Of a stretch of DNA of 64,000 nt, positions 4,328-53,596 are shown one piece after another (within the stretch, counting starts at the first letter, position 1; each line of letters begins with the position of its first letter). The stretch is from Escherichia phage vB_EcoM_NBG2. The position numbers and the translations under genes are program-made. The notes beneath the pieces are model-generated. The model was not told the origin of the DNA. It searched no databases and saw only the letters and a list, made by a program, of their open reading frames with translations. The stretch lies in sequence record NC_054925.1, one strand, 5' to 3'.

Positions 4328-4346
4328 AAAGGCCCGAAGGCCTTTT
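4328..4346 (-). terminator. GC-stem hairpin with UUCG tetraloop in mRNA
   Basis: plus GGCC-CGAA-GGCC flanked by A/T runs, between 39.1-like gene and gene 39. Confidence 0.5.
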
Positions 4347-4614
4347 ATTTAAAACGAATAGTTGAATCCTTAAAGAACAGCCCAGAACATACTGTTCCTT
4401 CTACTTTCTGCCCGGTAGGTCCAATAGCACGAAATCCAGTATGCTGGAAATCATTTTCAGAGCAACCGAACCAGTTATATCCAGTGATTTCAATATTAGT
4501 AAACCCACTTGAAGACAAAACTTTGGTTGCATTATCAGCATCAGTACATCCTACTAAAGATACTGCTAATACTAATGCCGCGATAGAACGATTAACATAT
4601 TTCATAATTTTCAC
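4345..4614 (-). CDS. putative lipoprotein
   Basis: 89 aa; N-terminal hydrophobic segment ending LVGC (lipobox-like). Confidence 0.5.
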   Translation of the reverse strand: MKIMKYVNRSIAALVLAVSLVGCTDADNATKVLSSSGFTNIEITGYNWFGCSENDFQHTGFRAIGPTGQKVEGTVCSGLFFKDSTIRFK

Positions 4615-5795: not shown

Positions 5796-5966
5796 AATTT
5801 CCTCATTAATTGAACATTGGAGCGATGCGTTTCAGAAGAGTATCAGCGCACCTTTAACGAATTATCCATTTTATTCTTCAAGTTGTTTTCTGTATCAGTA
5901 GTTGATATTGATATAGTACCATAATCAACTACTGATGTATATAGTTTTATGAAAAAATTTTAAACT

Positions 5967-18561: not shown

Positions 18562-18590
18562 AACAATCTCCTCATTTAACCAACAAGACT

Positions 18591-18620
18591 ACTATACCAT
18601 AGTCTTGTCAGCTTGTAAAC
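18591..18620 (-). promoter_or_regulatory. early promoter upstream of dmd
   Basis: GTTTAC, 18 nt, TGGTATAGT. Confidence 0.55.
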
Positions 18621-21652: not shown

Positions 21653-22501
21653 TTAATCAACTGCTATTGGATGAATAGCATTAAACTTATGAAATGCTTC
21701 TGATTTTTCTTTACGCGAAACACACATGCGAAGAACCTTTAATGGATCGTCTTCTTCACCCAACGATTTTCGTTTTTCAATATTCGATGTTTTCCAACGA
21801 GCTTGCTCTGGAAACTCTCTATTGATTTGCTCAAGCGCTCTATTATGTTTAGAATTACTACGAATTGAACTGCACCCGCCAGGAGCTTGTGCTTTTCCAG
21901 ATACAACCAGATATTTGAACAAGGCCAAATGCGGATAACCTTGATTAATTAAATTGAGAAATGCATACATATCTTCGCATAAATCAATTTTTCCATACCC
22001 AATTTGTTCTGTCGTAAGTTTTCCAAGGTCATACCATGTATTCGTGAATCCATATGAATTTTCACGATAATTACCCCAAGATGAAGTAATTTTAAAAATT
22101 GGTAGACGAGCATGGCCATGATAATATCCGCAATCCATGGCATCCTCAACATATTGAATCAATTCATAGAACTGTTCACGAGTTAATTGATTAATTTTAT
22201 CTACGCAGCGACGATCATCTTTCTTTCGCATTGAACTCATACGAATAGTAGTATCATCATCGATCATCCAAATTCGCTGACCTGCATACATATCAGTAAT
22301 TGCTTTACGAGTTCCAGCAATTCCATTAACATCATCAGGAATAGTTATAATTTTAGCTCTAGACCCATAAGCGTCATAATAAGCTTTTTCTTCGTGTTTA
22401 CGTACTACAATATGAGGTTCATAATCAGATGGAAACATATCAAGGGCAGAAACTGCCCCTACGCGTTGATAGCTTGGAATTACGAATTGAATCATTTCCA
22501 C
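21653..22501 (-). CDS. putative GT-A fold (GT2-like) glycosyltransferase at the beta-gt locus
   Basis: 282 aa; N-terminal FVIPSYQR and DxD-like WMIDDDT; between uvsX and gene 42. Confidence 0.55.
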   Translation of the reverse strand: MEMIQFVIPSYQRVGAVSALDMFPSDYEPHIVVRKHEEKAYYDAYGSRAKIITIPDDVNGIAGTRKAITDMYAGQRIWMIDDDTTIRMSSMRKKDDRRCVDKINQLTREQFYELIQYVEDAMDCGYYHGHARLPIFKITSSWGNYRENSYGFTNTWYDLGKLTTEQIGYGKIDLCEDMYAFLNLINQGYPHLALFKYLVVSGKAQAPGGCSSIRSNSKHNRALEQINREFPEQARWKTSNIEKRKSLGEEDDPLKVLRMCVSRKEKSEAFHKFNAIHPIAVD

Positions 22502-23644: not shown

Positions 23645-24025
23645 TCACTTAGTCAAATTTTTTACACATGAATTATAAGAATTTACTACATACTCCATCG
23701 GAGCATTTTTACCAGTACGCCATTGATAATTATTAGCCCAATTAGCCCAAAGTTCGGCACAGTAACTTTCAATTTTTTCTTCACGCGTAATCACATCTGA
23801 ATTACGATATGCTTGTGCAGATTCATCTGGACGAATAGCTTCGTCAAAATTCGCCTGCATTTGTTCTACTGTCTGTTTTGGAGCTTCTTTATAACACTTA
23901 ACATTAGGATTATAAAATTTGCTTGAACAGTTTACAATTTTTCCTACATCAGATTGATTTACTACCGGTCCTTGAGCTACACAACCAGTAAGACCCAATG
24001 CAATAACCAAAATAGCGATTTTCAT
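23645..24025 (-). CDS. putative lipoprotein (imm.1 position)
   Basis: Track ORF starts on TTG inside promoter; trimmed to ATG (M5) with GGAGAAT SD; signal peptide with LTGC lipobox. Confidence 0.5.
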   Translation of the reverse strand: MKIAILVIALGLTGCVAQGPVVNQSDVGKIVNCSSKFYNPNVKCYKEAPKQTVEQMQANFDEAIRPDESAQAYRNSDVITREEKIESYCAELWANWANNYQWRTGKNAPMEYVVNSYNSCVKNLTK

Positions 24026-24059
24026 TTCATTCTCCAAATCCGCATCAGTTGATAGTTGT

Positions 24060-24089
24060 ATAGTACCATGGAAGAACAGGGATGTAAAC
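24060..24089 (-). promoter_or_regulatory. early promoter upstream of imm.1-like gene
   Basis: GTTTAC, 18 nt, TGGTACTAT; part of a ~60-bp module repeated at 50748-50811. Confidence 0.55.
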
Positions 24090-24176
24090 AGTTTTGTGAA
24101 AAATTTTTAATGAATTCCAGAGGTCCAGAATCATCTATTTTTCCTAAGTATAGATTTATATTACTTGTATGAAAAA

Positions 24177-24192
24177 GGGACCCGGAGGTCCC
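24177..24192 (-). terminator. hairpin downstream of gene 43
   Basis: GGGACC-CGGA-GGTCCC. Confidence 0.5.
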
Positions 24193-24205
24193 TAGATTTA
24201 TTCTA

Positions 24206-26902
24206 TCAGCCAAACAGGAAGTCTAACGAAGCTTTTTCCTCATAGTCCATACCTGCCGATTCACACATACCCGCAAGCGGTTTAACAAACGATTTTTGGA
24301 ACAAAGTTGAGTAGTCAATCCAAGACAGTACATCAGAACGAATTTCTTTTGGAAGTTCCGTACCCGATGGCCAAGCAATGCACTTGTCACCAAATGGATT
24401 TCCCTCACGTAATGGAAGAACCATTACCTTATTTCCATCCAAAATTGGAGCTACACCTAAACCACTAACAGCTCGACGATAAGTTAGCACCCCACGAATG
24501 TGGAACGGGCATTTAAATCCTGGCCAACCTTTATCATCATATTTCGCTATATCGTTCGCAGTTTTTACTTCAGCAATAACTTTATAGTCAAGTTGACGAT
24601 ATTCTTTCTCAAAGTTCTTGTAGTATTCTTGGACAGACTCTTCGCCTTCCTGAAGAATGCGACGAATACTTTCTTCGAGAGCTTCTTGTACTGCTTTTGG
24701 TGTTGAACTCTGCTGAGTTTCCATACCCATGATTTTTAGATGCGGTTCAGCAAATCGCTTATCTTCCATATCATAAACGTTTAGAGCATAACGTTTTTTC
24801 GCTTTCCAAAATCCACCAACACCCTTTGAACCAAGCGGAGGGCAAGAAATAGCTTCACGGTCCATATGCATCAGATGCTCGCGGTTATTCATATAATCAC
24901 ATAACTCACGATATGCAACATCAATCATAGGTTCCATCTTTTTCTTACCAAACTGATTCATGAATTCAACTAAATCATTTTGTTCTTTAAAGCGGTCAAG
25001 ACCTACTTTTTCAATTACTTTATCTACACAAACATATACCGAATCAGTATCACCTGCTGCGATGAAATCTTCACCATTAGTTCCACATACTTTATTCAGA
25101 TATTCATTAATTTTGCGAGCAATCCACTGAATACCGACTTGACCGAAAATTGTGATAGCAGTAGCATTTCGCAAATCATAGTAACGGAAATGAATATTAC
25201 CAAGAGCACCATAAAGACTGTTAATAAGAATTTTACGGTTCAGCTGATTTGTGTTAGCAAGTGTAGCTGCTTTTTCACATTCTTCGATCAGACTATTAAG
25301 AACAGATTCGGTGTAATTTGATAGTTCATTTAAGAAATCATCACTGAACTTAACATATCGTTCAACTTCCGGTTTAGTTGAACAAGACCCTGCGCCTTTC
25401 ATAATAATCTTTTTAATAGCTTCGGCATTCATTTCTTCAGCGAACATTTTCTTTTTCCAATCTTTACGCTGGAAAAATACTTTAGCGATTTCCTTTGGAA
25501 TGATACCTTCTTGATGTTTATCATACATCCATCCATTCGGAGAGCAAGAATATTCATCACTTGGCTTAGGAGCTGTTCCTGCGATATATTCATGAATTGG
25601 ATGAACTTTAAACTGCCCACGAATAGTTTCAGGACTAATGTTAACCTGACGAATAATGCTAGGATACAGAGACGTCAAGTCAAAACTCATAATGTATCGA
25701 CGAGCAATCGGTTTAGGTTCAAATACAAATGCACCTGGAAAACTCTGCTTAACGTGCGAACCTTGTTGAGGAATAACCTTATGTTCACCTTTCAATGAGT
25801 TAAAAATAATAGCATCCCAAGTTTTAATAGGACTCATTACACCAGAAAAAGGCATTTTAGCGTAATAAGACATACTTAAAACTAGATCGATAAACCCACG
25901 AATTTTATCAATTGCTTGAACTGATTCTACGTCAATGATGTTATAACTAATGTATCGTTGATGATTAGTCTCACGAAGTTTATTAATAGGACCATCGTAC
26001 GGCAATTTACCTTTTTTGGTTTCGTGCTGAGCAACTGATTCCAAAGAGAATGATGGCAAATTAGTAAATGCGAATTTTTTGTACAAATCTAAATAATCAA
26101 GAATAGATACGCCATCAATCGAATAAATTTCTTTGCTACCGTACATATTTTGAATTAGTTTAGATTTTACTCGACCGATTGGAGAGAAGCGTTTCATACT
26201 ACGTTCACCAAGAACCATTTTAACACGATTCATGATATACGGAACGTCAAATCCCTCAATATTCCAACCAGTAAAAATAGCAGGTCGTTTCTGTTCCCAG
26301 AGATTAATATATTCCATGAGCATATCACGCTCATTATCAAATGGCATATAAATTACTCGGTCAAGAATTTCTTGAGGAACTTCATCACCACCTTCACAGT
26401 CAAGTTTAGCAGCTAACTTTGCATCCCATTTTGATACTGAACCGTACATTGAATTCAACAAATCAAAGACGTAAAAACGATCGTCAATTGAATCATAATG
26501 AGTGATAGCATCAATTTCATATTCCGCTTTCATTGGGTCAGGAAATTTATCGCCAGTAACCTCAATGTCACAGTTAGCTACACGAACAAATTTTCGGTCA
26601 TAAACAATTTCTGAACCATATGTATCACTGATATAAGCGAGTTTAAAATCGTTCATACCAAGAGCTTCGAGACCGATGTCTTCCATTCGTTTCATCCAAT
26701 CTCGGGCATCTTTCATTGATGGAAATTTTTGAGGAGCGCAATTTTTACCATAAATGTCTTTGTATTTTGATTCTTCCTTACAGTGTCTAAACATAGTCGG
26801 AAGATATTCTACTTCACGAGTACGTTCCTTTCCGTTTTCATCAATATAACGTTCAACGATGTTATTTCCGACTGTTTCAATAGAGATATAAAATTCTTTC
26901 AT
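24206..26902 (-). CDS. 43: DNA polymerase (gene 43, family B)
   Basis: 898 aa; exo motif CDIEV, pol motifs SLYPS, NSLYGALG, GDTDS. Confidence 0.95.
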   Translation of the reverse strand: MKEFYISIETVGNNIVERYIDENGKERTREVEYLPTMFRHCKEESKYKDIYGKNCAPQKFPSMKDARDWMKRMEDIGLEALGMNDFKLAYISDTYGSEIVYDRKFVRVANCDIEVTGDKFPDPMKAEYEIDAITHYDSIDDRFYVFDLLNSMYGSVSKWDAKLAAKLDCEGGDEVPQEILDRVIYMPFDNERDMLMEYINLWEQKRPAIFTGWNIEGFDVPYIMNRVKMVLGERSMKRFSPIGRVKSKLIQNMYGSKEIYSIDGVSILDYLDLYKKFAFTNLPSFSLESVAQHETKKGKLPYDGPINKLRETNHQRYISYNIIDVESVQAIDKIRGFIDLVLSMSYYAKMPFSGVMSPIKTWDAIIFNSLKGEHKVIPQQGSHVKQSFPGAFVFEPKPIARRYIMSFDLTSLYPSIIRQVNISPETIRGQFKVHPIHEYIAGTAPKPSDEYSCSPNGWMYDKHQEGIIPKEIAKVFFQRKDWKKKMFAEEMNAEAIKKIIMKGAGSCSTKPEVERYVKFSDDFLNELSNYTESVLNSLIEECEKAATLANTNQLNRKILINSLYGALGNIHFRYYDLRNATAITIFGQVGIQWIARKINEYLNKVCGTNGEDFIAAGDTDSVYVCVDKVIEKVGLDRFKEQNDLVEFMNQFGKKKMEPMIDVAYRELCDYMNNREHLMHMDREAISCPPLGSKGVGGFWKAKKRYALNVYDMEDKRFAEPHLKIMGMETQQSSTPKAVQEALEESIRRILQEGEESVQEYYKNFEKEYRQLDYKVIAEVKTANDIAKYDDKGWPGFKCPFHIRGVLTYRRAVSGLGVAPILDGNKVMVLPLREGNPFGDKCIAWPSGTELPKEIRSDVLSWIDYSTLFQKSFVKPLAGMCESAGMDYEEKASLDFLFG

Positions 26903-26960: not shown

Positions 26961-26978
26961 AAGGGGCCGAAGCCCCTT
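26961..26978 (-). terminator. hairpin (UUCG loop in mRNA) between regA and gene 43
   Basis: AAGGGGC-CGAA-GCCCCTT. Confidence 0.5.
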
Positions 26979-26980
26979 GC

Positions 26981-27349
26981 TTAATTACCAATCGTATATT
27001 TGGGAACGAGTTTCCATTCATGTTTTTGTTTAAAAGAAATAACTCGGAAGTTATTAGTTAAATCTTTCATAAAAGTTCTTTGACCCGGGGCAATTTCAAT
27101 CAGTCCCCAATCTTCTAACAGCCATGCAATCGAATCACGACGAACTTCATCTTCTTCTGTCATTTCAACCTGGCGACCATCCATACGAAGCATTTCTTTA
27201 AAATGAACGATATAGTATAGTCCTTTTTTCTGGAGAATATGACAGGATTGATACAGAACTTTATCTTTATTATTAGCAATTCCCATACGAGTCAGAGTTT
27301 CTTTAACTTTCAAAAAATCTTCAGGTTTTTTAAGAGTAATTTCAATCAT
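26981..27349 (-). CDS. regA: translational repressor RegA
   Basis: 122 aa; size and position between 62 and 43. Confidence 0.8.
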   Translation of the reverse strand: MIEITLKKPEDFLKVKETLTRMGIANNKDKVLYQSCHILQKKGLYYIVHFKEMLRMDGRQVEMTEEDEVRRDSIAWLLEDWGLIEIAPGQRTFMKDLTNNFRVISFKQKHEWKLVPKYTIGN

Positions 27350-28905: not shown

Positions 28906-28927
28906 ATAGAGGGCCGAAGCCCTCTAT
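28906..28927 (-). terminator. hairpin (UUCG loop) between genes 45 and 44
   Basis: 9-bp stem ATAGAGGGC-CGAA-GCCCTCTAT. Confidence 0.5.
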
Positions 28928-29613
28928 TAAAAGTCGTGGGTAGAATCAGCTTCAAGAGCTACTACATAATTCGCGTGTTCACCTTCAAATTTAGCAGCAC
29001 CTTGTTTACCTTTTGCCCAGAGCAGAAGTTTATAATTTCCTGGTTGCATTTTCATATTTGCCATATTGATAATGAAATTAAATGTATTTTCACCATCATA
29101 ATCACCAAGAGTCAAAGAATATTTAACACGGGTCAAAGCAGAATCTTCTACTTTATTAAAACCGTTAATTACGATTTTACCTTCTTTTACTGTGATAGCG
29201 ATTGTATCAATCTGCAGACCACGAGATACACGCAACAGTTGTTGAAGGTCTTCAGCTTTAATTTCAGTAACAACAGATGCTACCGGGAATGGAATTGGTT
29301 TATTAGGAGCAACTACTGTACTCGGATCGGCTGCTGGCCAAAAAATTGTTGAGCGTGCATCAGCAATTTTAATATTTCCATCTTCTGACTGGGAAATTTC
29401 TGCATCATCATTAACTAGAGACAGAATACCGAGAAAACCGTTCAAATCGTAAATTGCTACATCAAAATCAATAGTGTCAGAAATATTTGCTTCCGCATAA
29501 GTGGTACCATTAACCGCGCGAGTCATAATAAATTGACCGGATTTAAGCATAATACCGGAGTTAATAGTAGCGAAATTTTTAAGCAGAGCAGTAGTATCTT
29601 TAGACAGTTTCAT
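28927..29613 (-). CDS. 45: sliding clamp (gene 45)
   Basis: 228 aa; size and position as T4 gp45; MotA-type middle promoter upstream. Confidence 0.85.
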   Translation of the reverse strand: MKLSKDTTALLKNFATINSGIMLKSGQFIMTRAVNGTTYAEANISDTIDFDVAIYDLNGFLGILSLVNDDAEISQSEDGNIKIADARSTIFWPAADPSTVVAPNKPIPFPVASVVTEIKAEDLQQLLRVSRGLQIDTIAITVKEGKIVINGFNKVEDSALTRVKYSLTLGDYDGENTFNFIINMANMKMQPGNYKLLLWAKGKQGAAKFEGEHANYVVALEADSTHDF

Positions 29614-30311: not shown

Positions 30312-31994
30312 TTAAACCATTACAGTAAATCGACCAACTTTCTTCATTTGAAGATGCTGACCATATTCTTGTGGGTCATGGTCTTTATGCGAAATTATAA
30401 AAACATTAGTGTTTTTCATTGAATTTATAATATTAGCTACACCTTTAATACCTTCGGCATCAAATGACCCATCAAACACTTCATCAAGAATTAATGTACT
30501 AATACTAACACCAGATACAATAGAAGCAATATCACGCCAAGTAAATAAAAGAGCAATATCGATTCGTGCCTTTTCGCCTTCACTAAATGAAGCATAACTA
30601 AAATCTTCACGACCACGGGATTTAATTGTCTCATTAAATTCTTCATCTAATGTAAACACATAATCCGCTTCCATTATTTTAAGATAATGGTTAATCTGCT
30701 TATTAAATAATGGAATGTACTTTTTAATAATAGCACCTTTAATACCAGAATCTTTGAGCATATCAGTCAAAATTCCTCTGTGGTATTTTTCCATTACTAA
30801 ATTAGTTTTTGTCTTAACAATTTTATCAAGTTCTTCTTGAAGCAGTGCTATTTCATCAGCATGGTCAATAAACTCAGATGATGCTTTTTCTATAGCCGCT
30901 TTAACTTTTTTAGCTTTATCTACCGTCGTGATTAAGGATTGCTTTTTATTGCGAATATCATTTGCCAGCGTCTGCTGGGTTTTAATATTATCTCGGTATT
31001 CATCAACAAGAACTTTTAAATTATCACGATGTGTTGAAAGCTGTTCAAAAGAATGCGTGCATTCAGAAATTTTATCTTTAATTTTAGAAACAACTTTATC
31101 ACCGGAACTTAATTGTGACAAACAGGTTGGACATAATCCACCTTCGTGATACATATTAATGACTTTATTATACGAGTCAATTTTTGATTTAATTAAAAAT
31201 GCTTCTTGACCGATTTTATTAAATGCATCAGTCGGGTCTTCATCCAAAACAATATTAACTAATCTTTCATTAGCTTCTTCTATTTCCGATTTTAGCGTTC
31301 TAGCTTCTTTTGCCAAATCATCGTACATATTCTGCAGACGAGTAAGGTTGTCACCAGACAATTTTTTCTGGCGTTCAACATTATCATTATATATTTTAAT
31401 TTGCTGGATAATACTATCTTTTTTAACATCAAGCACTTGGTTTTGTGAATTTAATTCACGTATTAGTGCTTTATTAAGCTTATCCATTTCAGCTAATGTT
31501 CCTACCTCGAGCAGGTCTTCGACGAGTTTTCTTCTTGCAGGAGTGGATAGGCCCATGAAAGGGGTATATCCAGCCGTGCCGAGTACGACGATCTGTTTGA
31601 AACTGGCGTATGACATTCCGATAAGCTGTTCAAATTCTGCTTGGAAATCTTTACTGCTGGCAGATTCATTAAGACGTGTACCGTTAACGGTGATTTCGAA
31701 AACATTTGGTTTTTGTCCTCTTTTGATATAGTACTTTTTCTCATCATATTCCATCCACAGTTCAACTAAAAGCTCTTTCTTATTTGTGCTGTTTATTAAT
31801 TGGCCTTTCTTTACATCACGAAATGGCTTGCCAAAAAGCCCAAATGTGATGGCTTCTAACATAGTAGACTTACCACCGCCATTTCGTCCAGTAATAAGAG
31901 TTTTTTGAACCTTATCTAATTGAATGTCAATAGGGTTTCCACCTACTGACATTATATTTTGATACCTAACTCGGTTTAGTTTAAAATTCTTCAC
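30312..31994 (-). CDS. 46: recombination nuclease ATPase subunit (gene 46, Rad50/SbcC-like)
   Basis: 560 aa; Walker A GRNGGGKST, central coiled coil with CPTC hook-like motif, C-terminal DEVFDGSFD. Confidence 0.85.
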   Translation of the reverse strand: MKNFKLNRVRYQNIMSVGGNPIDIQLDKVQKTLITGRNGGGKSTMLEAITFGLFGKPFRDVKKGQLINSTNKKELLVELWMEYDEKKYYIKRGQKPNVFEITVNGTRLNESASSKDFQAEFEQLIGMSYASFKQIVVLGTAGYTPFMGLSTPARRKLVEDLLEVGTLAEMDKLNKALIRELNSQNQVLDVKKDSIIQQIKIYNDNVERQKKLSGDNLTRLQNMYDDLAKEARTLKSEIEEANERLVNIVLDEDPTDAFNKIGQEAFLIKSKIDSYNKVINMYHEGGLCPTCLSQLSSGDKVVSKIKDKISECTHSFEQLSTHRDNLKVLVDEYRDNIKTQQTLANDIRNKKQSLITTVDKAKKVKAAIEKASSEFIDHADEIALLQEELDKIVKTKTNLVMEKYHRGILTDMLKDSGIKGAIIKKYIPLFNKQINHYLKIMEADYVFTLDEEFNETIKSRGREDFSYASFSEGEKARIDIALLFTWRDIASIVSGVSISTLILDEVFDGSFDAEGIKGVANIINSMKNTNVFIISHKDHDPQEYGQHLQMKKVGRFTVMV

Positions 31995-34218: not shown

Positions 34219-34236
34219 AAAGGGCCGAAGCCCTTT
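34219..34236 (-). terminator. hairpin (UUCG loop) downstream of alpha-gt
   Basis: AAAGGGC-CGAA-GCCCTTT. Confidence 0.5.
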
Positions 34237-35437
34237 ATTTTGTAATAATGTCAAACTGTTCTTTAAAACAGAAGCTTGAATCTTGGTGCTGATACAAAAA
34301 TTCATATGCTTTTTCTCGCTCACGGTCATAAAGAGCTCGGTCAGATGACAGTTCTTTAATACGTTCAAACGTTGATTCCATATCATTTTCATCAAACCAA
34401 ATGATACCGCTATCATGCGAGGTCAAAGGAGTATTATCAACACGGAATTTTAAATTTTCGCCAGTAGATTTCCAAAATACCGGAATTGTTCCACATGCAC
34501 CAAGCTCGAGATGAGTATATTCTAAAGAACGTTGTAGATATTTTTTGTCCAACTTACTCAGCTGATAACCAAATCCGGATTTACTCATGCGTTCAAGCAT
34601 TTCGCTATTTACATAACGATCAAGAATTTGCGTTGGCAAATTAGGAGCAATTTTAATTTGGTCTACTTGATGAAGACGATAATACTCGTATGGAATTCCT
34701 TTTTCTTTAATAGGAATGAACGCTGGAGAACGTTCCAGACCTTCCATAATAGTACTTAGTCCTGCAGGTTTAAGATGTTTTTCATGAAAATCAAACATCT
34801 GATAAAAACCTTTCCATGTAGTCGTACGACCAATCCAACGGTTAACATTCATGTTAATTTCAGAAACATCTTTCCAGTAGGTTGACCGAACCTTCGCAAT
34901 ATCCATAGGAGGCTGAAAGTTATATACTGTCGGTGCTTCTTCAATATCATCAAACAGAGAAACAGTTTCTGGATACCATTCTTTCATCAGAACTTTATTA
35001 AAATCACCATTATCAGAATGACTAAAAATAACATCAGCTCGACGAACAGTTTCTTCTAATCCCAAATTTCGACGCAAAGAAAGAGAAGAATGGTCATGTT
35101 GATAAACTACAACACGAACAGAAGGTTTAATGTTATCAATAATTTTTTTATAGTTATTAATAGTGTCTTCTTCAACCGAAGTAGCAGGAACTGAATTGAT
35201 AATTAGAATATCACAATCATTTACCAGCTTAAGTGTTTTATCATATTCTTTTGCCAATAAAACCGGAATTGAAAATGATTTATAATCATGCGCGCAATTA
35301 CGAGTAAATGATTTATCTTTAGCATAAACCAAAGTTACTTCATGACCATTCTTAATAAACCAATCACGTTGCTCAAGAGAAAATTTAGTTACACCACAAC
35401 CTTCAAGACCTCGAGCCATAAAAATACATACTTTCAT
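34235..35437 (-). CDS. agt: DNA alpha-glucosyltransferase
   Basis: 400 aa; size and position as T4 alpha-gt; N-terminal glycine-rich GLEGCGVTKF. Confidence 0.8.
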   Translation of the reverse strand: MKVCIFMARGLEGCGVTKFSLEQRDWFIKNGHEVTLVYAKDKSFTRNCAHDYKSFSIPVLLAKEYDKTLKLVNDCDILIINSVPATSVEEDTINNYKKIIDNIKPSVRVVVYQHDHSSLSLRRNLGLEETVRRADVIFSHSDNGDFNKVLMKEWYPETVSLFDDIEEAPTVYNFQPPMDIAKVRSTYWKDVSEINMNVNRWIGRTTTWKGFYQMFDFHEKHLKPAGLSTIMEGLERSPAFIPIKEKGIPYEYYRLHQVDQIKIAPNLPTQILDRYVNSEMLERMSKSGFGYQLSKLDKKYLQRSLEYTHLELGACGTIPVFWKSTGENLKFRVDNTPLTSHDSGIIWFDENDMESTFERIKELSSDRALYDREREKAYEFLYQHQDSSFCFKEQFDIITK

Positions 35438-37820: not shown

Positions 37821-37858
37821 ACATTATCCTCAATTACATTAAAATTTTATTATCCAAA

Positions 37859-37874
37859 AAGGGCCGAAGCCCTT
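37859..37874 (-). terminator. hairpin (UUCG loop)
   Basis: AAGGGC-CGAA-GCCCTT. Confidence 0.45.
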
Positions 37875-38073
37875 AGCTAAACTGTTTGGCACCCTTCCAG
37901 CCTTCGTACATCATTGCAGCTGATATTAATATTGCTCCTGCGCATTTTGAGTATTTGTGATTCCAAAACCAGTTCAGAAAAACTTCGTCATCAATACCTT
38001 GGGCTATCATATTTTCAAAGAACTGACGACGAGCTTCGGCAATTCGTTGCGATAATTTAGATTCAGGATTCAT
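37873..38073 (-). CDS. hypothetical protein
   Basis: 66 aa ORF. Confidence 0.45.
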   Translation of the reverse strand: MNPESKLSQRIAEARRQFFENMIAQGIDDEVFLNWFWNHKYSKCAGAILISAAMMYEGWKGAKQFS

Positions 38074-46365: not shown

Positions 46366-46395
46366 ATTATACCACATCCTTGTGGTAAAGTAAAC
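46366..46395 (-). promoter_or_regulatory. early promoter (copy of 2428-2458 module)
   Basis: identical 32-bp sequence. Confidence 0.6.
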
Positions 46396-47423
46396 TAGTT
46401 CAGTGCATTTAGTGCATTGTTCAGTTTAGAACGTTGCTTCGTGAGATTTTTGACTTTTTCTTGAGCTTTTTCTAACATCTTTTCAGCTTCTAACACTTCA
46501 TTAGTTGCTTTAACGAGTTCATCATCTACTGCCTTGATAGACTTCTCAATCGCATCAGCATGCCATTTTTCAACAGGTTTAAGACTCGGATTTTCAACAG
46601 GAAGAAAATTCACTTTATTGAATTTCCATGCATCCTTATTACCTGAACTATACATCCAAAATTTAGGATCGTTTGATGAGTAATTGGATAAATTTAAATT
46701 TAAGTTATCTTGCACTTCCTGCTTTTTCTCTTGCGTGACTTCATCCTTTCTCAAAAAATCGTATTTAAATGAAACGATCATATCAAGTTCATATGTTGTT
46801 GTGTCTAATTTAAATCGTTCGAAATGCTTTGAAATCTTAGACTGAACAGCGGCAACAACATCCATATACTTAAATGCTTCTGTCAACTGCGATTTAAGGC
46901 ATTCACAAATTGAAAGAGAATTTTTTGTATTAGGTTTAAAGCTAATTCGTGCAGTTCTATTATTTTCTTTTAATGGTCTTACTTCCATCTGAAGAGTATA
47001 ACCATCAAATTTCAGATTCTTTAAGTTAATATCAGAACCTTTTAATCGACTCGCAGTTGATAAAATTTGCTTTAATTGTCTACGGAACAGAGCAATAAAT
47101 CTCCATTCAATACGATAATGATTTGGATTGAAAAATCCAGATGATAAATCAACCTTACTCTGACCAACGCCTTGAACAAATAGAGGATTTTTATAATCAA
47201 TAGTTTTACAGAAATCGGTGAGCTGCTCACGAGCAGTCATTTGCGTAATATACCCTGCTTTACTAAAATTACGCACCCATTCACTGCTATTCTTATACTT
47301 AAAGTGATGAATAGTACGATTAACTTTATCAAGGTCTAAATTATTTTCACACAAAAATGTCATAACATCACGAGTATCGCTGGCATTACGAACCATATCT
47401 TCAATTTGAGAACGAGTTTTCAT
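46395..47423 (-). CDS. hypothetical protein, member of tandem paralog array
   Basis: 342 aa; motif FRRQLKQILSTASRLKGSD; coiled-coil tail. Confidence 0.55.
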   Translation of the reverse strand: MKTRSQIEDMVRNASDTRDVMTFLCENNLDLDKVNRTIHHFKYKNSSEWVRNFSKAGYITQMTAREQLTDFCKTIDYKNPLFVQGVGQSKVDLSSGFFNPNHYRIEWRFIALFRRQLKQILSTASRLKGSDINLKNLKFDGYTLQMEVRPLKENNRTARISFKPNTKNSLSICECLKSQLTEAFKYMDVVAAVQSKISKHFERFKLDTTTYELDMIVSFKYDFLRKDEVTQEKKQEVQDNLNLNLSNYSSNDPKFWMYSSGNKDAWKFNKVNFLPVENPSLKPVEKWHADAIEKSIKAVDDELVKATNEVLEAEKMLEKAQEKVKNLTKQRSKLNNALNALN

Positions 47424-48786: not shown

Positions 48787-49314
48787 TTATGCGAGTACCG
48801 TCTTTAACCGTTCTTCAAACTTCCGAAGAGTATTTTGGCGTTCAGCTCTTTGCTTTTTGTAAGTTTCAATACGCTCTGAAATGAGAGTGTATCGTTCATT
48901 TACTGATTCTTTCATAAAATCAGGAATTTCACGAGAAGCTTTAATCTCATCAAATTTATCAATAACAGCTTGCTCTTCAGCAATTAAGTTATCATACATT
49001 AAAATATCTTTCTTGATGAACTCAATATCTTCTTGAGTTACACGAGATAATTTAGATACTTTATCCTTTTTGTACTGTTCGTTAGTATCACGAGACCAGT
49101 GCAATGTACGATTTTTATTCGTATTCTTGTAAATTTCTACAATACCAATCTCATCGATAATAACGATCCAATTCCAACGGGATTTGTAAATTTGTCCTCC
49201 ATCAACAGTGATTTCACCTCCGATTGAGATGTCATTAAAGAACTTACTTTGTGCTTCAGATTTAAATTTACCATCGTTGTAATTTACCAAGTTGAAAATA
49301 TCTTTAGCGTTCAT
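48787..49314 (-). CDS. hypothetical protein with coiled-coil C-terminus
   Basis: 175 aa; GGAGGAA SD; early promoter upstream. Confidence 0.5.
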   Translation of the reverse strand: MNAKDIFNLVNYNDGKFKSEAQSKFFNDISIGGEITVDGGQIYKSRWNWIVIIDEIGIVEIYKNTNKNRTLHWSRDTNEQYKKDKVSKLSRVTQEDIEFIKKDILMYDNLIAEEQAVIDKFDEIKASREIPDFMKESVNERYTLISERIETYKKQRAERQNTLRKFEERLKTVLA

Positions 49315-49342
49315 TTTGTGTTCCTCCGTAGTTGATAGTTGT

Positions 49343-49372
49343 ATAGTACCACAGAGGAACAGTCTTGTAAAC
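49343..49372 (-). promoter_or_regulatory. early promoter
   Basis: GTTTAC, 18 nt, TGGTACTAT. Confidence 0.5.
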
Positions 49373-49778: not shown

Positions 49779-50747
49779 TTATTTCAGAAGAGTAACCTCA
49801 GCAATTTCTTCCCAACCGTTTTTGTCGGTCATAATAAAGTCAGCAAGATAAAGAGCAGTACGCAGTGAAACATTGCGTAAACGATTAACATTGACTTTCA
49901 TCCATGATAATGCTTTATAAGTTTCTTCATCAGAAAGACCGCGCTTTTGCATCATGTCAGTTGAAAGAATAACATCTTCAACCCTGACCATAATTTCTTC
50001 ATTAGTGTGAACACCCAAATCTAAATAAACCGAGCGGGACACTAATGCTTGTAAATGTGGAGCAAGTTTAGTACCGCGGTCTAATTCGCGGTCAATGTCA
50101 ACGTTTGTGATAAAAACAATCGTTCCTTTAAATTCAAACTCACGGTCAATGCCTTTTTCTTCTAAGTAAGAAGATGCAGTGCTCCAGCAGACTTTACGGG
50201 TCTCTCCAGTGTCCAGAGCAGCTTTTAGAAGATTAAGAATGTCCATATCAGAGAAAACATCCACATCATCAATCAAAAGGACAGAGTTCTCTTCACGATT
50301 ATACCAAAGCTGCTCATAAAGACCAATACCAGAGATTTTACCATTAATGCTTTTATATTCAATGTATCCAATATCGTTTGCTTTATTTAAAGCTTTATCT
50401 AAAGAATACGTTTTACCAATACCTGCTGCGCCAGAGATAATTAATGAACGAATATTTCCATTAATAATACCATTCGTCATCATTCCCATAACATTAAATC
50501 TTTTATTAATGCGGGTTTTCATATCTTCATATGATTCTTTAACTTCTTCAACTTTTACACCATCATATGAAATATCTGATTTGTAAACCCAAACACCACG
50601 ACGTTTACCGTCAATTTCAACAAAAACTTTACCATCTCCTTGTGCATCTACCGGAGCATTATCTGGGAACCATTCGCCTAAGAGCTCAAAAGTTCCAGAG
50701 ATTTCTTTACCGAAGTAGATACCCTTATTGATAGTTACAGTTTTCAT
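49779..50747 (-). CDS. P-loop ATPase (AAA-like)
   Basis: Track ORF trimmed to M57 (longer start runs through promoter and hairpin); 322 aa; Walker A GAAGIGKT, Walker B LLIDDVD. Confidence 0.6.
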   Translation of the reverse strand: MKTVTINKGIYFGKEISGTFELLGEWFPDNAPVDAQGDGKVFVEIDGKRRGVWVYKSDISYDGVKVEEVKESYEDMKTRINKRFNVMGMMTNGIINGNIRSLIISGAAGIGKTYSLDKALNKANDIGYIEYKSINGKISGIGLYEQLWYNREENSVLLIDDVDVFSDMDILNLLKAALDTGETRKVCWSTASSYLEEKGIDREFEFKGTIVFITNVDIDRELDRGTKLAPHLQALVSRSVYLDLGVHTNEEIMVRVEDVILSTDMMQKRGLSDEETYKALSWMKVNVNRLRNVSLRTALYLADFIMTDKNGWEEIAEVTLLK

Positions 50748-50781
50748 TTTATTCTCCAAATCCGTATCAGTTGATAGTTGT

Positions 50782-50811
50782 ATAGTACCATAAAGCTTTA
50801 TGCTTGTAAAC
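50782..50811 (-). promoter_or_regulatory. early promoter upstream of P-loop ATPase gene
   Basis: GTTTAC, 18 nt, TGGTACTAT. Confidence 0.55.
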
Positions 50812-50841
50812 AGTTTTGTGAAAAATTTTTGAAATAAAAAA

Positions 50842-50859
50842 GGGAGCCCGAAGGCTCCC
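50842..50859 (-). terminator. hairpin (UUCG loop) preceding early promoter
   Basis: GGGAGCC-CGAA-GGCTCCC. Confidence 0.5.
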
Positions 50860-50862
50860 TTA

Positions 50863-51876
50863 TCATTTATAATAACTTCGGTGGTTTTCAAGATAAACCC
50901 TCTCAAGGAAGTCATCCCAGAAACCCATGTCTACTTTTTGCTGCATACCGTTCTTAGAAGCTTCAATGGATGCTGCTTCTACTTGATCGACCACATCTTC
51001 CAAAAACTCTTGGACAGTTTTAAATGGATGTTTACCCAACTTCACGTCGAGAATAAATGGAGCATCTTGGAGTGGATAAACCAAATCACCAGTTTTGTAA
51101 ATTTCCAATAGTTGGAGTCCACCACGGCAAGCATGACTAAGAGCTTTCCAGTCAATGCCCTCATTCGCTTCAGCCTTACGAGCACGTTCGCCGTATTCAG
51201 CATCTAATTTGTTCAGTGACTGCTTAAGCTCAATAAGAGAAAGCGTTGTCTGATATTTACGACCCAACACAGTATAGAACGTTTGCGGGCCTGTTTTCTC
51301 GTGATTATGGAACACCCATTCACAGAACTCGTTCTCTGGAAGACGATGCTTAATATCTTCAACTTTAGTGCGACGCTGCTTAATGGAACCGTCTTCTTGA
51401 TAATCAACCCACTGATCGGGGATTTGATTAACTACTTTCAATACATCACGCAATGCGGCCAAACGAGAACCCTTAACACCATATTTAGAAGCTTGCTTGC
51501 GAACATATCCTAAATAGGATTTCATGTTAGTTGTATAAAACCGTGAACGATTGTCTTGAATAAACTTCCATACATCAGGCAAATCTGATTTAACTACTAG
51601 TTCAGGTGGAGTGTGGAGCATATCCAATGCTACAGTTTCACCATCTGCTGCTAATTTAAAGAAATACTTAAGACTGTATAGTTCATGGTCAATATCATCT
51701 TTAGTGTTTTTAGATGATGTGTTGTTAGTGTTTTTACTCATATGCTCTTTAACATTTCCGATAAGAATATCGCGAGCAGGAGGAACAAAGATTTCTTTAA
51801 AATCTACATCAGATTCTGGAGTAGAAGTTCCATAAAGATGACTACCAAAATAGCTTTTCATTACTGTTTTCATCAT
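50863..51876 (-). CDS. putative nucleotidyltransferase (Pol-beta-like fold)
   Basis: 337 aa; N-terminal GSHLYGTSTPESDVDF and downstream DMLH acidic residue. Confidence 0.5.
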   Translation of the reverse strand: MMKTVMKSYFGSHLYGTSTPESDVDFKEIFVPPARDILIGNVKEHMSKNTNNTSSKNTKDDIDHELYSLKYFFKLAADGETVALDMLHTPPELVVKSDLPDVWKFIQDNRSRFYTTNMKSYLGYVRKQASKYGVKGSRLAALRDVLKVVNQIPDQWVDYQEDGSIKQRRTKVEDIKHRLPENEFCEWVFHNHEKTGPQTFYTVLGRKYQTTLSLIELKQSLNKLDAEYGERARKAEANEGIDWKALSHACRGGLQLLEIYKTGDLVYPLQDAPFILDVKLGKHPFKTVQEFLEDVVDQVEAASIEASKNGMQQKVDMGFWDDFLERVYLENHRSYYK

Positions 51877-53431: not shown

Positions 53432-53566
53432 AATTACATACTCCTTTGAATAATATCAATAATGTTGTTCACCAGATTATAAGTAAACATTGGGTAATTA
53501 TATTGAATCATCACATACACAACAAACAAAACTTTCATTCTCTTCTCCTTGACCGTTGACAAGATT

Positions 53567-53596
53567 ACTATACCATAACCTTGTCAACTTGTAAAC
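53567..53596 (-). promoter_or_regulatory. early promoter
   Basis: GTTTAC, 18 nt, TGGTATAGT. Confidence 0.5.

Follow-up and report, generated by a model that had tools for sequence, protein, structure and literature searches.

A two-block repeat in Escherichia phage vB_EcoM_NBG2 is best read as a pair of T4-type early promoter cassettes

Introduction

Why do two unrelated genes of a T4-like phage begin behind nearly the same stretch of DNA? This question is raised by a 64,000-nucleotide region of Escherichia phage vB_EcoM_NBG2 (NC_054925.1), hereafter called the window. An initial annotation made from its letters had described a repeated module comprising a promoter, a 5ˊ UTR and a ribosome-binding site (RBS), located upstream of an imm.1-like lipoprotein gene and again upstream of a P-loop ATPase gene. 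Our analysis indicates, with a probability of about 0.9, that the two sites are members of a single T4-type early promoter subfamily, each continuing into a short leader and an RBS, and that they are alike because of descent and recombination. The repeat is an already known feature: these are T4 early promoters, one of them named (Pe26.4), that are organised as PeSL-type cassettes.

Extent and identity of the repeat

The repeat resides on the minus strand of this Tequatrovirus (T4-like) genome, at positions 24018-24108 (copy A) and 50740-50830 (copy B), and the two copies are identical at 78 of 91 nucleotides (85.7%). The initial annotation had assigned it the narrower coordinates 24026-24089 and 50748-50811, where 52 of 64 nucleotides agree (81.2%), a value barely above the 80% identity below which its author had been prepared to abandon the proposal. 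The block is present as described, although the sequence quoted for it overruns its assigned end by 19 nt, to 24108 and 50830. Each quoted block occurs exactly twice in the window, compared with an expectation of zero from dinucleotide shuffles, and beyond the module the two loci soon diverge, with 27% and 42% identity in the 40-nt flanks. The existence of a repeated module at both sites is thus well founded.

What had been regarded as a single block is better described as two, arranged around an unrelated spacer. The A/T tract and the -35 box (A5T5-CACAAAACTG-TTTACA) are alike at all 26 positions. The segment running from ATGG-TACTAT to ATGAAAA, which includes the extended -10 element, the start region, the leader, the GGAG sequence and the start codon, is alike at 49 of 52. 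Between these segments lie the 13 leading bases of the 17-nt spacer, of which just three agree. Read along the minus strand, both copies have the same layout, which begins with an upstream stop codon, a hairpin that is rich in G+C and has a T run, the tract AAAAATTTTTCACAAAACTG, and TTTACA. This is followed by a 17-nt spacer, whose last bases are TGG, and by TACTAT, ACAACTATCAACTGAT(G/A)CGGATTT, GGAGAAT(G/A)AA, and ATGAAAA. The strand, the two-block form, the membership of a larger promoter family and the presence of the module in T4 itself had all been overlooked previously.

Anatomy of the two copies

Copy A is flanked by gene 43, encoding DNA polymerase, and the imm.1-like gene. Directly past the gene 43 stop codon at 24206 (ORF 24206-26902), a terminator scan identifies a minus-strand hairpin, AGGGACC-TCCG-GGTCCCT followed by TTTTT (24176-24193; -13.9 kcal/mol, z = -2.4), which does not adjoin the A/T tract but lies farther upstream, at a distance of approximately 62 nt. 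A weak promoter-like site, TTTTCA-17-TATACT (9 of 12 positions), is also present on the minus strand between this terminator and copy A, at 24147-24175. Copy A itself starts with an A/T-rich UP-like tract (24089-24108) that is identical in copy B. The consensus scan then places a -35 hexamer, TTTACA, at 24083-24088 and a -10 hexamer, TACTAT, at 24060-24065, separated by the 17-nt spacer TCCCTGTTCTTCCATGG (24066-24082). The first 13 nt of this spacer (24070-24082) are unrelated to copy B, and its last three, TGG (24066-24068), place the TG of an extended -10 (TGn) element before the second hexamer. From the -10 spacing and homology to T4, the putative start is the A at 24053, which would yield the 28-nt leader ATCAACTGATGCGGATTTGGAGAATGAA (24026-24053). 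This leader is predicted to be unstructured (fold z = 0.07). The Shine-Dalgarno sequence GGAG is found within GGAGAATGAAA (24025-24035), and the ATG that follows opens the imm.1-like gene (23645-24025), which codes for a 126-aa lipoprotein of the DUF5481 family and is itself followed by imm.

Copy B has the same parts on the same strand. Its terminator hairpin, AAGGGAGCC-TTCG-GGCTCCCTT followed by TTTTTT (50840-50861; -19.3 kcal/mol, z = -5.0), is located directly past the stop codon, at 50863, of an nrdC.11-like nucleotidyltransferase gene. The A/T-rich UP-like tract (50811-50830) is followed by TTTACA (50805-50810), the 17-nt spacer AGCATAAAGCTTTATGG (50788-50804), which is that of the T4 frd.3 promoter, and TACTAT preceded by TGG (50782-50787), with both hexamers again found by the consensus scan. 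Within the spacer is the 12-nt palindrome ATAAAGCTTTAT. We considered whether it might be an internal stem-loop of the PeSL type and discounted this, given that 12 nt without a loop is too short. Homology with copy A and T4 places a putative start at the A at 50775 and a 28-nt leader at 50748-50775, which is likewise predicted to lack structure (z = -0.29). The Shine-Dalgarno GGAG within GGAGAATAAAA (50747-50757) precedes the nrdC.10-like gene (49779-50747), encoding a 322-aa P-loop ATPase (weak-AAA). A separate family of terminator hairpins that resemble one another (GGGCC-GAAG-GCCC type) occupies intergenic sites of the window at 4328-4351, 26961-26984, 28908-28931, 34219-34242, and 37858-37881.

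Both program-made ORFs had been suspected of artificial extension into or through the repeated block, and this proves to be correct. The ORF at 23645-24037 opens at a TTG located four codons ahead of the real ATG at 24025, and the ORF at 49779-50915 opens 56 codons ahead of the real ATG at 50747. The T4 annotation begins at the same codons, giving MKIAILV for imm.1 and MKTVTIN for nrdC.10. For annotation, the practical outcome is that the starts are corrected from 24037 to 24025 and from 50915 to 50747, and that two early transcription units can be marked together with their terminators. One further gene in the window deserves mention. Downstream of gene 42, where T4 has a 351-aa beta-glucosyltransferase, there is a 282-aa minus-strand ORF (21653-22501), and phage RB7 has a gene annotated as 'beta-glucosyl-HMC-alpha-glucosyl-transferase' at the same place, which suggests that this ORF is a T2/T6-type glucosylation gene.

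Correspondence to T4 early promoters

The early promoters of T4 constitute a class defined by an upstream A/T element, a -35 element, a TGn element and a -10 element, which together create an unusually long consensus (PMC2988021). For the early promoters of T4 and PST, one report gives the consensus as TTTACW-N17-TAYWAT (PMC4122927). Both copies carry GTTTACA, which fits the T4-type -35 element GTTTAC(A/T), and their 17-nt spacers, TGG and TACTAT fit the TGn and TAYWAT features of the class in the consensus scan. The A/T-rich tract AAAAATTTTTCACAAAAC upstream of the -35 is identical in copies A and B and similar in other early promoters of the window and of T4. The earlier proposal of a shared promoter, 5ˊ UTR and RBS ahead of two unrelated genes is supported, as all parts of a T4 early promoter are present at both sites.

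Comparison with T4 itself leads to the same identification. Approximately 500 T4-like phages match 1.2-kb pieces around each copy at 95-99%, and T4 carries the module before imm.1 and nrdC.10, with a partial copy before nrdC.8. As in the window, the T4 imm.1 and nrdC.10 promoters are located after the gene 43 terminator and the nrdC.11 terminator, respectively, and their upstream tract, -35, -10, start region, leader and RBS are all as in the window. The differences are as follows. The imm.1 spacer begins TCCC in the window and AGAC in T4 (TCCCTGTTCTTCC and AGACTGTTCTTCC, respectively), the window's imm.1 copy lacks one ACT of an ACTACT repeat and has one G/A change relative to T4, and the A/T runs differ in length by one base. 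A time-resolved omics study places T4 imm.1, nrdC.10, and nrdC.8 in the early-RNA/early-protein class.

Start sites can be proposed by the usual spacing rule, which takes the A 7 nt downstream of the -10 box. Applied to the T4 imm.1 copy, this rule yields T4 base 27044. In a T4 transcription study, map unit 27,044 is given as the beginning of the region that lies downstream of Pe26.4, Pe20.3 and Pe19.8 (PMC6024815). The predicted start of T4 imm.1 therefore coincides with the start of the region assigned to Pe26.4, meaning that this promoter has already been named and that its start site agrees with ours. By homology, the corresponding starts in the window would be 24053 and 50775. In addition, the T4 motA early promoter (GenBank Z48569) shares with the module the A/T tract, GTTTACA, TGG-TACTAT and the start region through CAACTACTGATAC. 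In that record, the depositors mark GTTTACA as the -35 signal and TACTAT, the hexamer present in copy A, as the -10 signal. The motA promoter differs from the module in having its own 13-nt spacer, distal leader and RBS (AGAATTACGGAGATTAGAAAATG).

These correspondences allow a simple model for the use of the module. Right after infection, unmodified E. coli RNA polymerase carrying sigma-70 would bind the A/T tract, GTTTACA and TGn-TACTAT, and transcription would begin at the A located seven bases downstream of the -10. The product would carry a 28-nt unstructured leader with GGAG positioned 6 nt before the ATG, and the terminator hairpin upstream of each copy would shield the unit from read-through. 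Because promoter, leader and RBS are the same, the imm.1-like and nrdC.10-like genes would receive the same immediate-early signals for the initiation of transcription and translation.

A mosaic promoter family

The two copies are not the only members of their kind. A blastn search with the 96-nt module matched 549 phage records, essentially all from Tequatrovirus, at approximately seven to eight places per genome. In T4, the family comprises approximately eight promoters (ndd.6, motA, frd.3, e.8, mobD.5, nrdC.10, nrdC.8 and imm.1) along with decayed copies at cef and denV. The 17-mer GGTACTATACAACTATC is identical in seven of these eight, and the start region ACAACTATCAACT(ACT)GATAC is kept in six to seven T4 promoters. 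Two additional members occur on the minus strand of the window. An nrdC.8-type promoter at 49312-49372 has the same -35, -10 and start region (GGTACTATACAACTATCAACTAC), with a spacer that resembles that of copy A and its own leader, GGAGGAACACAAAATG. At 5866-5961, a decayed, cef-type member shares the upstream tract, reads TATACA at the -35, carries GGTACTATATCAATATCAACTACTGATAC, and has an e.8-type leader in which the RBS is mutated to GAAG.

For comparison, 19 early-promoter-like sites in the window were paired with one another, giving 171 pairs. The A-B pair ranks first of 171 both in the 26 nt that precede the -35 (85% identity, versus a mean of 39%) and in the 30 nt after the -10 (97% versus 34%), whereas its spacer is at background (41% versus 38%). 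Other pairs of promoters in the window also exhibit extended likeness. The sites at 2429-2460 and 46366-46397 (-) agree at all 32 positions from -35 to -10, TTTACT-TTACCACAAGGATGTGG-TATAAT, with a small inverted repeat, CCACA...TGTGG, in the spacer, and this pair may be the one that the initial annotation counted as its 'first' repeated module. The sites at 18583-18620 and 53559-53596 (-) are 89% identical over 38 nt. Here the inverted repeat ACAAGACT...AGTCTTGT brackets the -10, reminiscent of PeSLs of the subclass in which stem-loop and -10 overlap.

Among T4 family members, the segments have different affinities from one promoter to the next. The frd.3 promoter is the same as that of motA in the upstream segment (30/30) and as that of nrdC.10 in the spacer (15/15), and it has a leader of its own. 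The imm.1 leader matches the ndd.6 leader (96%), and the match runs on into ATGAAAATCGCT. Within the T4 family, the nearest relatives of the imm.1 spacer are those of e.8 and nrdC.8 (73% each). The different spacer of the window's imm.1 copy is also found, as a 13-mer, in other phages, among them a Dhakavirus, where it belongs to promoters of the e.8 type. This segmental incongruence is the pattern expected from exchange between copies, and neither convergence nor simple drift predicts it.

We also compared how both copies vary together in five genomes (the window, T4, RB7, G8 and one metagenomic genome), using the ACT indel, the A/T run length and the R polymorphism. The ACT indel is concordant between the copies in three of the five, at sites that are prone to slippage. 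A scan of IMG/VR with a 21-mer recovered 20 loci from approximately six contigs, which serve as examples rather than as statistics. Finally, the T4 imm.1 (27013-27058) and ndd.6 (166996-167064) modules are identical through the first four codons, MKIA, and thus the shared cassette extends into the coding part of the genes for two small envelope proteins.

Alternative explanations

Three other accounts of the likeness between the copies were weighed. The most credible of them, although still improbable, is that an old duplication has been held in place by purifying selection, while the unconstrained spacer drifted and no recombination took place among copies. This account agrees with the fact that the conserved parts are the functional ones and that the divergent spacer is a segment in which length alone matters. 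However, the spacers do not appear to have drifted at random, as that of nrdC.10 recurs at 15 of 15 positions in frd.3, and the spacer of the window's imm.1 promoter recurs in e.8-type promoters of other phages even though T4 has a different one at this locus. Hybrid promoters at an insertion junction, described below, also speak for exchange. Much harder to sustain is the notion that each block was selected separately toward a long early-promoter consensus and a strong RBS, with neither shared ancestry nor exchange. The T4 consensus is indeed unusually long, extending over the upstream tract, -35, TGn, -10 and further positions, and the RegB/S1 consensus accounts for the RBS with its A-rich tail. 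Yet the 24 leader bases between the -10 and GGAG belong to neither consensus and are identical at 23 positions, whereas other early promoters of the window average just 34% in the segment after the -10. Moreover, T4 members share whole spacers and leaders in varied combinations.

We consider it equally far-fetched that the shared leader acts as a cis-acting RNA element, such as a riboswitch, a binding site for an sRNA or protein, or a leader peptide. Conservation of ACAACTATCAACT(ACT)GATAC across several T4 promoters could be taken in its favour. Nevertheless, the leader is only 28 nt long, has a predicted fold z-score of about 0 and contains no ORF, and the search found few matches outside Tequatrovirus, with the Dhakavirus record that was examined having one place. 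A structured regulatory leader was rejected because both leaders fold no better than shuffled controls, and an Rfam scan of the copy A region returned only a sub-threshold chance match and no known RNA family. A related idea, which we regard as quite doubtful, is that this start region did not simply hitch-hike as a relic of common ancestry but is a functional mark of a co-regulated immediate-early set (motA, imm.1, nrdC.10, e.8, ndd.6, frd.3 and nrdC.8). If it were functional, the region might tune escape from promoters that bind polymerase very tightly, or might instead be the handle by which T4 early promoters are abruptly shut off. We therefore favour the reading as related early promoters whose likeness would reflect common descent together with recurrent homologous recombination between promoter copies that act as portable PeSL linkers ahead of variable genes.

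The ribosome-binding site as a candidate RegB target

The 3ˊ end of the module resembles a second known regulatory signal. Together with ribosomal protein S1, the nuclease RegB is reported to cut early T4 mRNAs within intergenic GGAG sequences. The same report gives an 11-nt consensus for RegB/S1, GGAGRAYARAA, whose commonest form in T4 is GGAGAAUAAAA (PMC1702504). Such sites are single-stranded, intergenic GGAG sequences in early leaders followed by an A-rich 7-mer, and both copies in the window are alike in this respect, with predicted structure at the two sites that is not significant. Copy B agrees with the consensus at all 11 positions and has exactly the commonest T4 form. Copy A, with GGAGAAUGAAA, agrees at 10 of 11; it has a G at position 8, one of the three positions at which A is most conserved, and the imm.1 copy of other phages has an A there. 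In T4, all intergenic GGAG sites are reported to have been tested, and that of nrdC.8 to be moderately cleaved (Durand 2006, PMC1702504). RegB, acting with S1, would target the GGAG and A-rich 11-mer of both leaders in our model. Since the shared 11-mer matches the RegB target, this end of the module probably gives both genes the same post-transcriptional shut-off as well, judging from the match to the consensus.

Gene turnover and comparison with known systems

Genes located directly behind these promoters differ among relatives. In a metagenomic Tequatrovirus, the nrdC.11 gene and its terminator are followed, as usual, by an nrdC.10-type promoter, but the leader behind it is a different one, and three small genes come before nrdC.10. 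The left junction of this insertion falls in the start region (CTATCAA), and nrdC.10 retains GGAGAATAAAATG, preceded by a promoter that is decayed and of a different type. On the contig concerned (IMGVR_UViG_3300045988_128797, 1530-2400), the inserted ORFs encode approximately 49, 87 and 66 aa, an internal early-like promoter is present, and CTATCAA is found at both junctions. Similarly, the promoter after denB fronts MKFKFYY in RB68 and other phages and MKIAEIE (ndd.6) in T4, and the imm.1 locus carries either MKIAILV or MKIVMGC/MKIVYGC lipoprotein alleles behind the same module. In RB7, a gene annotated as 'site-specific intron-like DNA endonuclease' (30403-31122) lies between nrdC.10 and nrdC.9 and is absent from T4 and the window.

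Direct recombination between copies A and B was considered as a source of mini-circles and rejected, as the 26.7-kb interval between them carries essential replication genes that such an event would delete. Exchange therefore has to draw on other members of the family or on other genomes. Such repeats in T4-like genomes are to be understood as promoter cassettes, and not as mobile elements or assembly artefacts.

The closest known counterparts are the PeSL cassettes. As portrayed in two reports (PMC2839356, PMC4122927), a PeSL consists of an AT-rich tract, -35 and -10 elements and a stem-loop, together with the Shine-Dalgarno sequence and start codon of the gene that follows, and is tied to insertions and deletions. 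According to the same reports, these cassettes serve as linkers for homologous recombination, a process for which homology of less than 50 bp suffices in T4. The modules in the window resemble them in several ways. Each pairs an early promoter with a stable hairpin and T run (24176-24193 and 50840-50861), the Shine-Dalgarno sequence and start codon end the repeated unit, with identity between A and B extending through GGAGAAT-AAATGAAAA, and there are multiple copies per genome whose adjoining genes are inserted, deleted or replaced among relatives. The PeSLs of RB49 and phi1 are described as having near-perfect TTGACA and TATAAT elements and a G/C-rich stem-loop that is often inside the promoter, and deletion products or mini-circles are reported for these two phages. 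In the window, by contrast, the hairpin is a separate upstream terminator, well removed from the promoter in copy A.

The mosaic sharing of segments and the three-gene insertion offer a compact example of the published proposal that conserved promoter cassettes serve as recombination linkers through which T4-like phages shuffle genes; they do not introduce a further type of element. Morons and integron gene cassettes are likewise portable and supply accessory genes with expression signals that are either brought along or reused. The modules differ from them in that no integrase or attachment site takes part, and the promoter itself is the proposed linker for the general homologous recombination of the phage.
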